From the NCBI RefSeq assembly GCF_050920415.1, contig NZ_CP169309.1: a stretch of DNA of 64,000 nt; one strand, written 5' to 3'. The position numbers were made by a program, and so were the translations under genes. Positions within the stretch are counted from its first letter, which is position 1; each line of letters begins with the position of its first letter. Below, piece after piece: positions 11,800 through 19,885 of this stretch. The DNA is from Escherichia coli. GTDB taxonomy: Bacteria > Pseudomonadota > Gammaproteobacteria > Enterobacterales > Enterobacteriaceae. The notes under the pieces are model-generated. The model made no database searches and was not told the origin of the DNA. It was given only the letters and a program-made list of their open reading frames with translations.

Positions 11800-11940
11800 A
11801 TCATCGCAACCAAACGACTCGGGGTGCCCTTCTGCGTGAAGGCTGAGAAATACCCGTATCACCTGATCTGGATAATGCCAGCGTAGGGAAGTCACAGACC
11901 ACCAGGTCATTGCTTCTTCACGTTATGGCAGGAGCAAACT
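11800..11940 (+). promoter_or_regulatory. TPP (thi-box) riboswitch, thiM leader
   Basis: Contains GGGGTGCCCTTCTGCGTGAAGGCTGAGAAATACCCGTATCACCTGATCTGGATAATGCCAGCGTAGGGAAGTC, which matches the thiM aptamer as I recall it; lies just upstream of the thiM start. Confidence 0.9.
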
Positions 11941-13581: not shown

Positions 13582-14409
13582 ATGAAACCAATGCAGCTTA
13601 GCATCACCAGTCGAAAAAAATTCACCGCTTTATTATGCGCTCTTGGGCTAATTTCCATCGTTGCAATTTATCCGCGTCAGACGGTGAATTTTTTCTATTC
13701 GACAGCTATTCAGATTAAAGACTACATCCACTTCTACGGTTATCGCCCGGTTAAATCTTTCGCTATTCGCATTCCTGCCAGTTACACCATTCACGGAATA
13801 GATGTTTCGCGCTGGCAGGAGCGGATCGACTGGCAGCGGGTGGCTAAAATGCGCGATAACGGTATTCGTTTGCAATTTGCCTTTATCAAGGCGACGGAAG
13901 GCGAAAAGCTGGTGGACCCGTATTTTTCGCGTAACTGGCAACTAAGCCGCGAAAATGGCCTGTTGCGTGGGGCGTATCATTATTTTTCCCCGTCGGTATC
14001 CGCCTCAGTTCAGGCGCGATTATTTCTGCAAACGGTGGATTTCTCACAAGGCGATCTACCTGCCGTGCTGGACGTAGAAGAACGGGGAAAATTATCGGCA
14101 AAAGAATTACGCAAGCGGGTAAGTCAGTGGCTAAAAATGGTCGAAAAACGCACGGGAAAAAAGCCGATTATTTACTCAGGAGCCGTTTTTTATCACACCA
14201 ATCTGGCGGGCTATTTCAATGAATATCCGTGGTGGGTGGCTCACTATTATCAACGTCGTCCGGACAATGACGGCATGGCCTGGCGCTTCTGGCAACATTC
14301 CGACCGTGGCCAGGTGGATGGCATTAATGGCCTGGTGGATTTTAATGTGTTTAATGGCACGGTGGAGGAGCTGCAGGGATTCGTTGATGGGATTAAAGAA
14401 ACGCCTTAA
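13582..14409 (+). CDS. yegX: GH25 lysozyme-like glycoside hydrolase
   Basis: 275 aa ORF; GIDVSRWQ and DFNVFNG motifs are typical of the GH25 muramidase fold. Confidence 0.8.
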   Translation: MKPMQLSITSRKKFTALLCALGLISIVAIYPRQTVNFFYSTAIQIKDYIHFYGYRPVKSFAIRIPASYTIHGIDVSRWQERIDWQRVAKMRDNGIRLQFAFIKATEGEKLVDPYFSRNWQLSRENGLLRGAYHYFSPSVSASVQARLFLQTVDFSQGDLPAVLDVEERGKLSAKELRKRVSQWLKMVEKRTGKKPIIYSGAVFYHTNLAGYFNEYPWWVAHYYQRRPDNDGMAWRFWQHSDRGQVDGINGLVDFNVFNGTVEELQGFVDGIKETP

Positions 14410-14460: not shown

Positions 14461-15207
14461 ATGGAACAAGCGCATACCCAGCTGATTGCCCAACTGAACG
14501 AACGTATTTTAGCAGCGGATAACACGCCGCTTTATATTAAGTTTGCCGAAACGGTGAAAAATGCCGTGCGCAGCGGGGTGCTGGAACATGGCAATATTTT
14601 ACCCGGCGAGCGCGATTTAAGTCAGTTAACCGGCGTTTCGCGTATTACGGTGCGCAAGGCGATGCAGGCGCTGGAAGAAGAGGGCGTGGTGACACGTTCG
14701 CGCGGCTACGGCACGCAGATTAATAACATCTTTGAATACTCGTTAAAAGAAGCGCGAGGATTTTCTCAGCAGGTGGTGTTGCGCGGGAAAAAGCCCGATA
14801 CGCTATGGGTTAACAAGCGAGTGGTTAAATGCCCTGAAGAGGTGGCGCAGCAATTGGCGGTCGAAGCGGGTAGTGATGTCTTTTTGCTTAAGCGTATTCG
14901 CTATGTTGATGAAGAAGCGGTCTCTATTGAGGAGTCGTGGGTTCCGGCGCATTTAATTCATGATGTTGATGCCATCGGAATCTCTCTTTATGACTACTTC
15001 CGCAGTCAGCATATTTTTCCAAAGCGTACCCGTTCCCGCGTTAGCGCCCGGATGCCGGATGCCGAGTTTCAGTCACATATTCAATTAGATAGTAAAATAC
15101 CGGTGCTGGTGATCAAGCAAGTGGCGCTTGACCAACAGCAACGGCCTATTGAGTACAGCATCAGCCACTGTCGCAGTGATCTATACGTTTTTGTGTGTGA
15201 GGAGTAG
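14461..15207 (+). CDS. yegW: GntR-family transcriptional regulator
   Basis: 248 aa; N-terminal HTH (LPGERDLSQLTGVSRITVRKA) plus UTRA-like C-terminus. Confidence 0.85.
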   Translation: MEQAHTQLIAQLNERILAADNTPLYIKFAETVKNAVRSGVLEHGNILPGERDLSQLTGVSRITVRKAMQALEEEGVVTRSRGYGTQINNIFEYSLKEARGFSQQVVLRGKKPDTLWVNKRVVKCPEEVAQQLAVEAGSDVFLLKRIRYVDEEAVSIEESWVPAHLIHDVDAIGISLYDYFRSQHIFPKRTRSRVSARMPDAEFQSHIQLDSKIPVLVIKQVALDQQQRPIEYSISHCRSDLYVFVCEE

Positions 15208-16146
15208 TTCCTCGCGGGTTGGCGCGCAATCACCGCCGCGATGCCCGACAACCCACGACGCCACTGCATTGCCCAGCAATACGGCATCCGCCAGTGGCAA
15301 ACCAGAGGCCAGTCCAGCTAATACGCCACCTGCATGACTGTCGCCCGCCCCAATGGTGTCTACAACTTGCGTTGGAAATGCCGGGATGCAGCCAGAAGCG
15401 TTATTGCTGAAATACCATGCGCCTTCTTTATCCAGACGAACGATCAACGGCGCGGCAAATTTCTCCTGCCATTGCTTGCCAAGTGTTGTTATCTCTGCTG
15501 ATAAAGCAAAACGTTCGGCGGCAATCTCAACCTCCTGACGATTGAGTGACACTAAAGGTCGACAGGCCATGATTCGCGCCAGTAATGCATCCGGGATATC
15601 GCCAATACGTGGGCCAAAATCGATGAACGGCGTCACGTCTTGCAGACTCTCCAGCCATTCCACTAACAATTCACCGCAGGGCGAGGCCAGTTGATAACCG
15701 GAAAAATAGAGCAGGCTGCCAGGCGCAACGGTTAATCGCGCCAACCATTCGCGATTCCACTGATTTTCCACACCACTGAACGACATAAACGTGCGTTCAC
15801 CATCAGGCTCAACCAGCGCCAGACACCAGCCGTTATCGCCTTCGGCGTTATCGATGAGGCTGATTAATCCTTCTTTCGCCATCCGGTTACGAATAATTTC
15901 CGCCCACACACCCTGGCCGAGCGGCAGGGCATTACCCGCTTCGATACCGAGGCGATTTAACGCCACGGCAATATTCAGTGCACAGCCGCCAACGTTAACG
16001 CTCTGCTGTTTCAGTTCGATATCGCACCCACGCCAGGGTAGGGCATAAGCGTCGGCGATCACATCAATGACCGCCGCGCCGACGACCATCACCGGCTGAC
16101 GCGTGGTTAATTCAGGCAGCAGCGTGTGTAATCGAGCGCCGCTCAT
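15181..16146 (-). CDS. yegV: PfkB-family sugar/nucleoside kinase
   Basis: 321 aa; GG motif and C-terminal DTIGAGDSHAGG ribokinase-like signature. Confidence 0.85.
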   Translation of the reverse strand: MSGARLHTLLPELTTRQPVMVVGAAVIDVIADAYALPWRGCDIELKQQSVNVGGCALNIAVALNRLGIEAGNALPLGQGVWAEIIRNRMAKEGLISLIDNAEGDNGWCLALVEPDGERTFMSFSGVENQWNREWLARLTVAPGSLLYFSGYQLASPCGELLVEWLESLQDVTPFIDFGPRIGDIPDALLARIMACRPLVSLNRQEVEIAAERFALSAEITTLGKQWQEKFAAPLIVRLDKEGAWYFSNNASGCIPAFPTQVVDTIGAGDSHAGGVLAGLASGLPLADAVLLGNAVASWVVGHRGGDCAPTREELLLTHKNV

Positions 16147-17147
16147 ACCGCCTCCCGTTGTTGGCGATACTTTGCCAGCGCCGTGGCATAATGATTAAAA
16201 TCAAGCTGATTTACCGCATCCAGCTCCGTCTTAAACGCAGGATCGATAGCGTTAACGCCATGCAATGCGCCGCAAATCGCCGTCGCCATAGCGCCGATGG
16301 TGTCTGTGTCGCCGCCAAGGTTAGCGCACAGGATGGCGCAACGGTTCGGGTCGGTTTGTGCCAGTTCAACCAGCGCAATGGCGCACGGAACGGACTCAAT
16401 AGTACTGGTACCTGCCCCAACCACCTGATACAGCTGTTCGCTGGCGGATTCGGTGCCGTCGGCATTGCGCACAATTTTCAGCGCAATCTCCAGACGTGCT
16501 GCCAGTGAGGCGCTGAAGGTAGTGATGCGTTTTTGCTGTGCATGTCGCGCAATCGAGGGTAGAGAATCAACAATCGCTGACCAGCTTTCTCCGTCAATGG
16601 CACGGGAAATCGCCCATGCGATGACTACTGCACCTGCCACCGCCAGATCGGATTTATGGGTCGGGCTGGACGCCAGCGCCACATCATCAATAAAGGAATC
16701 AACATCGCGCGCCGGAAGCAAACAACCTAATGGCGAGACGCGCATCGCTGCGCCGTTGGTCACGCCATTGTTTTCCAGTTCAGCAACGGGTTTACCGTCG
16801 CGAATGGCGTTAAGCGCAATCTTCGAAGTTGGGCCAAGCACGTTTTTGTTAAAGGCGTTGAAACGCAGCGCCCAGTCGAGAATATTACGCCCAATCAGAT
16901 CCGGATCAATCTCGCCTTCACGTTCCAGTAACGCATCAGCCAGGCAAAGAGCCATTGAGGTATCGTCGGTAAATTCGGCGCGGTTAAAATAACAGGCCGC
17001 GTTATTCTCCTTTGGTCCAGGCAGAAAACGGTCAATCCAGCCAAAGTGTGCTTTAACGCGGCTGCGTGGCCAAAGCTCGGAGGGCATCCCCATCGCATCC
17101 CCTAACGCCTGCCCATAAAGAGCACCGAGAATACGTTCTGTTTTCAT
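16143..17147 (-). CDS. yegU: ADP-ribosylglycohydrolase family protein
   Basis: 334 aa; 4 bp overlaps with both yegT and yegV. Confidence 0.85.
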   Translation of the reverse strand: MKTERILGALYGQALGDAMGMPSELWPRSRVKAHFGWIDRFLPGPKENNAACYFNRAEFTDDTSMALCLADALLEREGEIDPDLIGRNILDWALRFNAFNKNVLGPTSKIALNAIRDGKPVAELENNGVTNGAAMRVSPLGCLLPARDVDSFIDDVALASSPTHKSDLAVAGAVVIAWAISRAIDGESWSAIVDSLPSIARHAQQKRITTFSASLAARLEIALKIVRNADGTESASEQLYQVVGAGTSTIESVPCAIALVELAQTDPNRCAILCANLGGDTDTIGAMATAICGALHGVNAIDPAFKTELDAVNQLDFNHYATALAKYRQQREAV

Positions 17148-18421
17148 TTAACTTCCCCTTGTGTCAACGCAATATCGCGATCATCGACCTTGATAGCCGT
17201 AATTTCGTTGTCGGATTCGCGGAAAAAAATCATGAACAGCACGGCGATAATGGCAATCATCACCGCGCCGAAAGTCCACATCCCGGACCAGTTGAAAGTC
17301 AGTCCGTTTACCGGTTCCGGATAAGCGAACATCTTTTCCATCATCACACCGCCAAGACGATAGCCGAGCAAACTGCCGAATCCCTGGCAGCAGAGCGTGA
17401 TCAGCCCCTGCGCAGCGGTACGCATATGCACGGGGGCTTTTTTATCGACATAGATGTAAGCGGTAACGTAGTAAAAATCGTAACTTACTCCATGCAGCAA
17501 AATGCCGAGGAACAGTAACGCGTAGGTGAAATATTCATCCGCACTACCGTAAATAAAGAAGCCATAGCGGATCGCAGCGGTGACCAGACCAAGTAATAAT
17601 ACCTTTTTGATACCAAAGCGTTTGGTAAAAAACGGCAATGCCAGCATAAAGAAGATTTCAGAGAACTGGCCGAGCGTCATCCAGCCGGTGGCGTTTTTCA
17701 TGCCGACTTCTGTCAGATAACCGTTGGCAAAGATGTAATAGAACGCCAGTGGCATCGCAAACAGGAATGAACAGAAGAAAAAGACGAGGAAGTTTTTATC
17801 GCGTAGCAGGATCAGCGCATCCAGGCCGAGCATGACTTTAATGTCCATTTTGCCGGTGCTTTTTGGCGGCGTGTCGGGCAGGAAAAACGCAAACACACCG
17901 AGCAGAGCAGAACTTCCGGCGGTAATCAGCAGCGGGATGTTAGTCGGAGAGATATCGGCATAACCCAGCATTTGCGGCAAAAATCCACATGCCAGACCGG
18001 AGGCAATCCAGCCGATAGTGCCCATCACACGAATGCGTGGGAAATCACGCTCCACATCCGGCACGTTGGCAAAAGCGATACTGTTAGTCAGCGCAATGGT
18101 CGGCATATAGGTTAGCGAGTAGGCCAGCAGTAACGGGAAGAACCCGGCAAAAGTGGTCTGTTGCGCAGCGAAATACATCAGCGCCGCACCAGCGAACATC
18201 AATACCGCCAGCACTTTCTGCGCCGAGAAAAAGCGGTCAGTGATGGAGCCAACCAGAATTGGCGACAGGATCGCCGCAATGGCGGTACAGGCATACGACC
18301 AGCCAATTTCTCCGGCACTAAAACCGCTTTTACTTAACCACAACCACAATGGCACAAACCACGCGCCCCAGATAAACCATTCAACAAACATCATGAACGA
18401 CAGCTTTGCTGTTGTTTTCAT
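17144..18421 (-). CDS. yegT: Nucleoside:H+ symporter family transporter (NupG-like)
   Basis: 425 aa polytopic membrane protein; first gene of yegTUV. Confidence 0.85.
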   Translation of the reverse strand: MKTTAKLSFMMFVEWFIWGAWFVPLWLWLSKSGFSAGEIGWSYACTAIAAILSPILVGSITDRFFSAQKVLAVLMFAGAALMYFAAQQTTFAGFFPLLLAYSLTYMPTIALTNSIAFANVPDVERDFPRIRVMGTIGWIASGLACGFLPQMLGYADISPTNIPLLITAGSSALLGVFAFFLPDTPPKSTGKMDIKVMLGLDALILLRDKNFLVFFFCSFLFAMPLAFYYIFANGYLTEVGMKNATGWMTLGQFSEIFFMLALPFFTKRFGIKKVLLLGLVTAAIRYGFFIYGSADEYFTYALLFLGILLHGVSYDFYYVTAYIYVDKKAPVHMRTAAQGLITLCCQGFGSLLGYRLGGVMMEKMFAYPEPVNGLTFNWSGMWTFGAVMIAIIAVLFMIFFRESDNEITAIKVDDRDIALTQGEVK

Positions 18422-18677
18422 CTTTTAATTCCTTCATGACAGGTAATGTAAGGTACGCGATGACAATACCATTTAATAATACCTTTTAAATACCTTTGCG
18501 GTGAAAACTTGACCGCGGTAACATTTTTTCTGATGAATCGAGCCAACAGAAAACGCTGAAAAAACATCCAAAAGATGGAAAAACTCGCCTGTAACGACCA
18601 GGATTATGATTGCCCGCAAAAGGCGGGCCAGGACAATCCATAGCCGATATCCAATCGGAATTTACGGGAGCATAGTA

Positions 18678-19730
18678 ATGACAGATATTGCGCAGTTGCT
18701 TGGCAAAGACGCCGACAACCTTTTACAGCACCGTTGTATGACTATTCCTTCTGACCAGCTTTATCTCCCCGGACATGACTACGTAGACCGCGTGATGATT
18801 GACAATAATCGCCCGCCAGCGGTGTTACGTAATATGCAGACGTTGTACAACACTGGGCGTCTGGCTGGCACAGGATATCTTTCTATTCTGCCGGTTGACC
18901 AGGGCGTTGAGCACTCTGCCGGAGCTTCATTTGCCGCTAACCCGCTCTACTTTGACCCGAAAAACATTGTTGAACTGGCGATCGAAGCGGGCTGTAACTG
19001 TGTGGCGTCAACTTACGGCGTGCTGGCATCGGTATCGCGGCGTTACGCGCATCGCATTCCATTCCTTGTCAAACTTAATCACAACGAGACGCTAAGTTAC
19101 CCGAACACTTACGATCAAACGCTGTATGCCAGCGTGGAGCAGGCGTTCAACATGGGCGCGGTGGCGGTTGGCGCGACCATCTATTTTGGCTCGGAAGAGT
19201 CACGTCGCCAGATTGAAGAAATTTCTGCGGCTTTTGAACGTGCGCACGAGCTGGGCATGGTGACCGTGCTGTGGGCCTATTTGCGTAACTCCGCCTTTAA
19301 GAAAGATGGCGTCGATTATCACGTTTCGGCTGACCTGACCGGCCAGGCTAACCATCTGGCGGCAACCATAGGCGCAGATATCGTCAAACAAAAAATGGCG
19401 GAAAATAACGGCGGCTATAAAGCGATTAATTACGGTTATACCGACGATCGCGTGTACAGCAAGTTGACCAGCGAAAACCCGATTGATCTGGTGCGTTATC
19501 AGTTAGCTAACTGCTATATGGGCCGGGCAGGGTTGATAAACTCCGGCGGTGCTGCAGGCGGTGAAACTGACCTCAGCGATGCAGTGCGTACTGCGGTCAT
19601 CAACAAACGCGCTGGCGGAATGGGGCTGATTCTTGGACGTAAGGCGTTCAAGAAATCGATGGCTGACGGCGTGAAACTGATTAACGCCGTGCAGGACGTT
19701 TATCTCGATAGCAAAATTACTATCGCCTGA
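18678..19730 (+). CDS. fbaB: Fructose-bisphosphate aldolase class I
   Basis: Internal start [22 protein letters not shown] within ORF 18606..19730 gives 350 aa. Confidence 0.9.
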
Positions 19731-19744
19731 TACGCCTCATACGA

Positions 19745-19885
19745 ACAGCACTACCCCGTAGGGCGGATAAGGCGTTCACACCGCATCCGGCAACCTATGC
19801 CTGATGCGACGCTGAAGCGTCTTATCATGCCTACACAGCGCTGCCCCGTAGGCCGGATAAGGCGTTCGCGCCGCATCTGACATAA
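19745..19885. repeat. REP/BIME cluster
   Basis: Repeated GCCGGATAAGGCGTTCACGCCGCATCCGGCA-type palindromic units downstream of fbaB. Confidence 0.85.

Follow-up and report, generated by a model that had tools for sequence, protein, structure and literature searches.

Escherichia coli breaks down pseudouridine by means of psuK-psuG-psuT (yeiC-yeiN-yeiM), a set comprising a dedicated nucleoside transporter, a PfkB-family nucleoside 5'-kinase and a metal-dependent glycosidase, PsuG, which cleaves the nucleoside 5'-monophosphate to ribose 5-phosphate and base. Here we analysed another locus of this species, yegTUV and the neighbouring regulator gene yegW (ggaR), contained in a 64,000-nt stretch of E. 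coli DNA (contig NZ_CP169309.1, assembly GCF_050920415.1), referred to below as the window. In our reading, to which we assign a probability of about 55%, yegTUV would be a repressor-controlled uptake-and-cleavage pathway for a non-canonical riboside, proceeding by import, 5'-phosphorylation and N-glycoside hydrolysis. Related sets of genes have been described elsewhere. The Salmonella stm4065-4067 operon encodes a PfkB kinase, STM4066 (1tyy), that has aminoimidazole riboside kinase activity, together with STM4067, a putative ADP-ribosylglycohydrolase; the STM4067 mutant is attenuated in the pig intestine. In the rus loci of Bacteroidetes, a transporter and a regulator are found with ribokinases and with ribose-releasing enzymes of variable type, among them, in some species, members of the ADP-ribosylhydrolase (ARH) family.

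The regulation of the yeg locus has been studied by Saito et al. (2024; PMC10819704), who found a single genomic ChIP-chip (chromatin immunoprecipitation on microarray) peak for YegW, located in the fbaB/yegT spacer. In their electrophoretic mobility shift assays, YegW bound a probe comprising the 190 bp upstream of yegT and, at higher protein concentration, a second one (probe 5) covering nt 571-869 of the yegT open reading frame (ORF). Northern blotting with yegT and yegV probes revealed the same 3.3-kb transcript, in the yegW deletion strain only, and this deletion raised yegTUV mRNA about 30-fold and left fbaB unchanged. Because the mutant accumulated more glycogen (about 2-fold), YegW was renamed GgaR; and because the GgaR-probe complex was dissociated in gel shifts by 10-100 µM ADP-glucose (ADPG), not by glucose or ADP, ADPG was proposed as its effector. 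Under repressing conditions GgaR was constant and low, at about 20 monomers per cell. What yegT, yegU and yegV do was stated to await study. The operon, its repressor and the convergent arrangement of yegV and yegW are already in the literature, and these data bear out two predictions of a first-pass annotation of the window, namely the co-transcription of yegTUV (the 3.3-kb transcript detected with both probes) and the assignment of YegW as their regulator, which is a dedicated, single-target repressor (PMC10819704).

The gene yegW occupies positions 14461-15207 on the plus strand (248 amino acids [aa]; GntR/HutC-type repressor according to the ORF, RefSeq and Pfam). The other three lie on the minus strand: yegV at 15181-16146 (321 aa; PfkB/ribokinase-superfamily kinase, predicted riboside 5'-kinase), yegU at 16143-17147 (334 aa; ARH-fold metal-dependent hydrolase, predicted riboside-5'-phosphate N-glycosidase) and yegT at 17144-18421 (425 aa; nucleoside:H+ symporter [NHS] family transporter of the major facilitator superfamily [MFS]). 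Using a 6-kb query, we found these coordinates, taken from the ORF list, to agree with those annotated in RefSeq for an E. coli chromosome with which the query is 100% identical, and recovered the locus in 5420 of 5426 complete E. coli genomes at a coverage of at least 80%; the yegTUV-yegW locus is core to E. coli. The first-pass annotation had named the four genes correctly, as judged by RefSeq, and its positions for all of them and for both 4-bp overlaps between the minus-strand genes were exact when compared with the ORF list and the junction sequence. The two minus-strand junctions, GGTATGAGC and AAATGAAAA, are both ATGA start/stop overlaps, joining the yegU stop to the yegV start (16143-16146) and the yegT stop to the yegU start (17144-17147), and are kept in orthologous loci. 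Purine-rich, Shine-Dalgarno-like stretches (GGGAGG, GGGGAAG) stand ahead of them, and the ATGA junctions would couple the translation of yegT, yegU and yegV.

YegU matched Pfam PF03747 over residues 8-302 (2.3e-66), its nearest solved structure being that of the uncharacterised MJ1187 (1t5j). Alignment of 30 homologues together with ARH3 and MJ1187 showed conservation of E24, T60-D61-D62, N131-G132, H164 (invariant in 30/30 family members) and D280-x-D282-T283; judged by this alignment, YegU is a full-length ARH-family protein with the predicted metal ligands and catalytic Glu. Its scores against the NCBIfam equivalogs were below cutoff both for DraG (81.2 vs 337.05 bits) and for Tri1 (71.9 vs 490). 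Rack et al. (2018) described how the ribose hydroxyls are bound by two Mg ions in these enzymes, how ARH3 clamps adenosine between a Phe and a Tyr, and how the phosphate of the cleaved ribose is held by a buried Gly and His, absolutely conserved in ARH1 and ARH3. A profile alignment to ARH3 showed that the YegU family keeps the Gly/His phosphate contacts of ARH3 and ARH1. The positions of the ARH3 adenosine clamp correspond in YegU to E123 and V129 and were never aromatic in the 30 members (the adenosine loop of ARH1 differs). Such a pocket would suit a 5-phosphoribosyl glycoside, not ADP-ribose.

For YegV, the best NCBIfam match was ribokinase, at 81.2 bits and below the equivalog cutoff of 299.65, and ribokinase was also its best match in the PDB; on these matches the protein is a member of the PfkB/ribokinase superfamily. 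Residues D28, G53-G54, N58 and G266-A-G-D269 were essentially invariant among 60 family members. We take the corresponding Asp, Gly-Gly switch and Asn of ribokinase to hold the ribose 2',3'-diol, and the Asp of the GAGD anion-hole motif to be catalytic. When aligned with E. coli ribokinase (RbsK), YegV displayed V26, C55 and A154 in place of N14, K43 and E143, three residues which presumably surround the anomeric side (C1/O1) of free ribose. The position of N14 was hydrophobic in all 60 members and that of K43 was Cys in 53, and the position of E143 varied (Ala in 17, Glu in 17; Ala in E. coli). A role as a true ribokinase was rejected for YegV, given a score far below the cutoff and the replacement of the N14 and K43 equivalents. 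In a survey of machine-learning annotations, YegV still figures as a kinase of unknown specificity.

We extended the analysis to 1.84 billion representative proteins (a 50%-representative set), in which 1776 YegU relatives were found at E <= 1e-10. A single-protein homology search had returned close enterobacterial orthologues only, and the representative search reached distant relatives and fusions; the Salmonella orthologue of YegU is 83% identical. Several of the best 150 relatives measure 600-760 aa, and nine of the ten long homologues examined were ARH-PfkB fusions (P0187, P0196, P0209, P0228, P0200, P0223, P0252, P0266 and P0220), with the kinase first in four and the hydrolase first in five. 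The protein P0160 (692 aa) apparently contains two ARH-like stretches and is without a kinase. Scanning genomes with a YegU profile of 30 sequences yielded 79 loci, in which ORFs were called, matched to the four E. coli proteins and their neighbours clustered; the hydrolase ORF was called in 71. Within about 3 kb of it, a YegV-like kinase was present in 58 of these 71 loci, and a GntR-type regulator was nearby in 47. The loci came from four phyla, Proteobacteria, Firmicutes, Actinobacteria and Chloroflexi, the taxa represented including Enterobacterales, Vibrio, Aeromonas, Sutterellaceae, Bacilli, Lactobacillales, Lachnospiraceae, Dialister, Streptomyces and Chloroflexi.

The adjoining transporter differed among these loci: it was of the NHS (YegT-like) type in 26, NCS1 in 16, of the PnuC family in 11 and ABC in several, and three Firmicute loci carried a LicT antiterminator with a beta-glucoside-type phosphotransferase system (PTS) EIIABC. 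The kinase was found in every NHS, NCS1 and PnuC locus and in none of the three PTS loci. In the latter (L070, L072 and L077, from Lachnospiraceae and Solobacterium) the YegU homologues, 34-36% identical, directly follow LicT and EIIABC, and no PfkB kinase occurs anywhere in the 15-kb loci. Transporter swapping and fusion of the pair classically indicate that two enzymes act in succession on an imported small molecule, and argue strongly against a protein-modification role of YegU. Four Edwardsiella and Serratia loci (L026, L029, L030, L037) retain only the hydrolase and the GntR regulator; in their flanks lie a cupin-like gene, hflD-like and adenylosuccinate-lyase (purB)-like genes and a two-component system, which we take from its sequences to be PhoP/PhoQ-like. 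Hafnia and Rahnella (L027, L028) have the full transporter-hydrolase-kinase-regulator set beside the same purB-like flank. The Edwardsiella and Serratia arrangement suggests partial loss or a different partner set.

YegT matched TIGR00889 (NHS) at 651.8 bits over residues 1-418 (cutoff 446.1) and is on this score a member of the NHS family of the MFS. Its crystal structure at 3.1 Å was published in 2025. By isothermal titration calorimetry the protein did not bind uridine, adenosine, cytidine or guanosine, and xanthosine, uridine, cytidine and gemcitabine were not taken up in transport assays. Of the residues of NupG, those contacting the ribose are kept in YegT, and those contacting the base are not conserved. 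The evidence restricts the substrate to a riboside with a non-canonical aglycone. The remark of the first-pass annotation that the substrate is not firmly established still holds, as YegT fails with the nucleosides tested and Saito et al. assign no function.

One candidate is a pyridine riboside (nicotinamide riboside, nicotinic acid riboside or an oxidised or reduced derivative), from which YegV would make the mononucleotide, YegU then being the E. coli nicotinamide mononucleotide (NMN) glycohydrolase or an NMN-like one. The E. coli NMN glycohydrolase activity was without an assigned gene in 2005, and the PnuC-family and NCS1 transporters of the 11 and 16 loci mentioned above are weak leads in this direction. 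We nevertheless hold the pyridine riboside to be improbable, because NAD genes neighbour the hydrolase in only 2 of the 79 loci. In one of the two, from Leuconostoc holzapfelii (L053:4160-10258), genes for an NrtR-like Nudix regulator and an AAHS-family (NiaP-like) MFS transporter, and nadC, stand immediately upstream of a module made up of YegU-like, NCS1 and YegV-like genes, a possible link to pyridine nucleotide metabolism. In the other, a Blautia metagenome-assembled genome (L071:1722-7990), nadA, nadB and nadC precede a 35%-identical YegU homologue without an adjacent kinase; of the small genes of uncertain identity between nadC and this homologue, one has a weak dCMP-kinase match and one weak N-acetyltransferase matches. 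An imidazole riboside, for which Salmonella provides the precedent, would be an equally open alternative.

As regards the repressor, YegW consists of an N-terminal GntR winged helix (Pfam GntR, 7.3e-16) and a C-terminal UTRA effector domain (9e-36), and by its domains is a GntR-family protein of the HutC type; it reached no NCBIfam equivalog cutoff, the best matches, PhnF and HutC, being below cutoff. The yegT leader reads AAAGGTATTtaAAAGGTATTattaAATGGTATTgtcatcgcgTACCttacatTACCtgtcatg...ATG on the minus strand. At 18442-18497 of this strand, within the GgaR-bound 190-bp probe, lies a conserved GGTAT repeat array, which we take as the candidate GgaR operator. It consists of three direct repeats AA(A/T)GGTATT (18497-18489, 18486-18478 and 18473-18465), followed by two inverted TACC elements (18455-18452 and 18445-18442). 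The pattern GGTAT-N6-GGTAT-N8-GGTA-N11-TACC is kept in Escherichia, Citrobacter, Enterobacter, Kluyvera, Cedecea, Pectobacterium and Budvicia as the surrounding spacer diverges, and Rahnella and Vibrio fortis harbor related GGTAT repeats with different spacing. A consensus scan gave a single sigma-70-like match in the yegT spacer, a candidate yegT promoter at 18476-18505 (minus strand), with a -35 element TTCACC at 18505-18500 and a -10 element TATTAT at 18481-18476, the latter within operator repeat 2. YegW bound to the array over the -10 element would occlude RNA polymerase until released by its effector, which would be a phosphorylated intermediate of the pathway or a close mimic. HutC-type repressors commonly answer to phosphorylated pathway intermediates (NagR, TreR, FrlR), and YegW may in truth be induced by the riboside phosphate, ADPG acting as a partial mimic.

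The 21-nt stretch over repeats 1 and 2 (18474-18494) has one other match in the window, where the chance expectation is 0 matches at up to 3 mismatches. This second, weaker operator-like copy, GGTATCAAAAAGGTATTATTA, lies inside yegT at 17594-17614 on the minus strand (19/21 identical), corresponding to nt 808-828 of the gene, within the published probe 5. It encodes the invariant peptide RFGIKKVLLLG; synonymous positions are partly conserved and are broken in Citrobacter and Enterobacter, for which reason we do not claim the internal copy as selected. Directly upstream of the yegT -35 element, at 18508-18523 (minus strand), there is a CRP-like half-palindrome, TGTTACCGCGGTCAAG. Most enterobacterial orthologues keep its TGTTA-N6-(G/C)TCA pattern, and a CRP site between fbaB and yegT was reported in a study by genomic SELEX (systematic evolution of ligands by exponential enrichment). 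A genome-wide scan with the CRP consensus at 3 mismatches was uninformative (193 matches vs 220 expected), and we note the site because of its conservation among orthologues and the SELEX report only.

At their 3' ends, yegV and yegW overlap convergently. The stop codons (yegW, TAG at 15205-15207; yegV, the complement of CTA at 15181-15183) delimit a 27-nt antiparallel overlap of the excludon type, covering 15181-15207 of both strands in exact antisense codon register; its length had been given correctly by the first-pass annotation, as verified in the plus-strand sequence 15150-15240. The 4-nt overlaps and the convergent overlap of exactly 27 nt are repeated in 23 loci of Enterobacteriaceae and Pectobacteriaceae (Escherichia, Citrobacter, Enterobacter, Kluyvera, Cedecea, Mangrovibacter, Pectobacterium and others), and because of this recurrence they are not due to chance. 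In Budvicia, Gilliamella, Hafnia and Vibrio the yegV/yegW overlap is absent, the genes being separated or co-oriented, and it is therefore lineage-specific and not intrinsic to the system. Throughout the 23 loci YegW ends invariably in DLYVFVCEE and the tail of YegV varies; the latter looks like an extension into a fixed end of yegW. A terminator scan and RNA folding of the junction detected no intrinsic-terminator-like site at the end of either gene, the folded hairpins being devoid of a U-tract; each transcript must therefore run into the other gene. ExcludonFinder, published in 2025, lists yegV-yegW among the E. coli excludons on the basis of RNA-seq coverage (PMC12288877). Transcriptional interference at the overlap, with positive feedback on induction, is plausible: derepressed transcription of yegTUV would send antisense RNA through yegW and could reduce repressor synthesis.

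Overall, the proposed pathway would start with the import of the riboside by the NHS symporter YegT. The PfkB kinase YegV would then phosphorylate its 5'-OH, and YegU would cut the C1' glycosidic bond of the riboside 5'-phosphate at a two-metal centre, giving ribose 5-phosphate and the free aglycone. In addition to the operator sequence and the feedback described above, we infer here the nature of these products and the kinase-then-hydrolase order. The first-pass annotation had placed de-ribosylation before phosphorylation, an order that is probably the reverse of the true one. Kinase-first is favoured because the residues holding the phosphate of the cleaved ribose are retained in YegU, because YegV is devoid of the ribokinase residues around the anomeric carbon, and because the PTS-linked homologues occur without a kinase: since a PTS delivers its substrate already phosphorylated, the hydrolases of these loci would have to act on a phosphorylated glycoside.

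The same three points tell against the alternative in which YegU strips the aglycone from the unphosphorylated riboside and YegV serves as a second ribokinase on the freed ribose. Although ribokinase is the best NCBIfam and PDB match of YegV, and although the ribose-responsive loci of Bacteroidetes pair ribokinases with nucleoside hydrolases or ARH-family enzymes, YegV scores 81 against a cutoff of 299.65 bits, the N14 and K43 equivalents are missing across its 60 members, the phosphate-contacting Gly/His of ARH1 and ARH3 is kept in YegU, the PTS-linked homologues necessarily meet a phosphorylated substrate without a kinase, and E. coli, as is generally known, already has RbsK. We regard this hydrolase-first order as unlikely, if the most serious of the competitors. 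The suggestion derived from Saito et al. that yegTUV acts on ADPG or on its production, with YegW sensing ADPG and the operon tuning glycogen, appears to us less likely still. It would account for the release of GgaR from its probe by 10-100 µM ADPG and not by glucose or ADP, for the roughly doubled glycogen of the yegW deletion, and for the result of a Keio screen in which the yegV deletion was glycogen-deficient on ADPG medium. Yet the effector panel comprised three compounds, in vitro only; exogenous ADPG is admitted by NupC and NupG, not by YegT; and in many taxa the module is accompanied by NCS1 or PnuC transporters, carriers of small bases, vitamins and ribosides. From the general chemistry of the family, moreover, ADPG has no ribose C1'' glycosidic bond of the kind cut by ARH enzymes, and the glycogen changes could be indirect, via nucleotide or pentose-phosphate pools.

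We consider it very improbable that YegU, in the manner of DraG, Tri1 or ARH3, truly removes ADP-ribose from protein or nucleic acid and that its neighbours are functionally unrelated. Membership of the Pfam family, an intact catalytic centre and the identity of its best, weak NCBIfam matches (DraG and Tri1) would fit such an activity; the scores are far under both cutoffs (81 vs 337 and 72 vs 490), the adenosine clamp is absent, a very strong linkage with a kinase and a small-molecule transporter extends across phyla and includes gene fusions, and neither the ORF list of the window nor the RefSeq annotation places an ADP-ribosyltransferase nearby. A role in protein de-ADP-ribosylation was rejected on the scores, the missing clamp and the linkage to kinase and transporter. 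The riboside pathway, with phosphorylation preceding hydrolysis, has in turn several observations weighing against it. The sole effector reported to free YegW from DNA is ADPG, at 10-100 µM, and the glycogen phenotypes of the yegW and yegV mutants are not accounted for by a simple riboside pathway. Ribokinase is still the best family match of YegV, so that a hydrolase-first route with phosphorylation of ribose keeps some likelihood. A different sugar may be the substrate of the PTS-linked homologues, whose identity to YegU is only 34-36%, and a literature search returned no paper giving YegU or YegV an enzymatic activity. On the regulatory side, the operator copy inside yegT may be fortuitous, or a weak, lineage-specific auxiliary site, and the constant level of GgaR in the conditions tested gives no sign of feedback via the overlap.

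Several features of the window surround the locus. The mechanical ORF of fbaB spans 18606-19730 (374 aa), and RefSeq starts the gene at 18678 (350 aa); with the RefSeq start, the spacer between yegT and fbaB measures 256 bp instead of 184 bp. Just past fbaB, at 19761-19831, there is a match to naRNA4, a nucleoid-associated RNA derived from repetitive extragenic palindromes (REP). On the other side, yegX (13582-14409), encoding a lysozyme-like glycoside hydrolase of family 25, stands between thiD and yegW. The E. coli loci (L001 and L002) contain it, and in most other enterobacterial loci it is missing and yegW abuts thiD. A thiamine pyrophosphate (TPP) riboswitch, also annotated in RefSeq, lies upstream of thiM-thiD at 11810-11906.

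The genes yegT, yegU and yegV belong to those of E. coli that still have no assigned biochemical function, yet they are core to the species, and the hydrolase-kinase pair is found in at least four bacterial phyla, including many gut Firmicutes. If the riboside pathway is correct, the ADP-ribosylhydrolase fold would have a second, metabolic use in the cleavage of small riboside phosphates, and the published link to glycogen would need rereading as an indirect effect. Broadly, and were the substrate a pyridine riboside, the ARH-PfkB module would represent a widespread, so far undescribed route of small-molecule nucleotide cleavage; that the module is an unrecognised, widespread small-molecule pathway is a possibility. 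Literature searches on ADP-ribosylglycohydrolases together with PfkB, PnuC or ribosides gave nothing of relevance. The candidate operator and the list of interchangeable transporters are concrete handles for finding the substrate.

Compared with the systems described so far, the closest in position is that of Saito et al. (2024; PMC10819704), which is the identical locus, presented there without an operator sequence or an enzyme function and with ADPG sensing as the proposal; what we add is a candidate operator and comparative data that point to a riboside pathway. ARH3, ARH1 and DraG share with YegU the fold, the binuclear metal site (TDD, DxDT), the catalytic Glu and the Gly/His phosphate contacts, and differ from it in that YegU is without the aromatic pair of ARH3 and appears in a context of small-molecule catabolism, not of protein modification. 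The rus loci of Bacteroidetes, in contrast to yegTUV, are based on polysaccharide utilization loci (PULs) with SusC/D, are induced by ribose and contain, according to their authors, bona fide ribokinases. The Salmonella stm4065-4067 operon is analogous, not orthologous, to yegTUV, because YegV matches STM4066 (1tyy) only at E = 0.0012 and because Salmonella has a separate YegU orthologue (the 83%-identical one). With its permease and GntR regulator, the part list of that operon would match yegTUV-yegW: in work by Dougherty and Downs in 2003, STM4065 is said to be a permease and the GntR-family STM4068 to control stm4065-4067. Finally, psuK-psuG-psuT follows the same logic as the scheme proposed here, the order of steps in yegTUV being our inference; PsuG has a different fold and cleaves a C-glycoside, whereas YegU has the ARH fold, and PsuT belongs to the CNT family of transporters, whereas YegT belongs to the NHS family.

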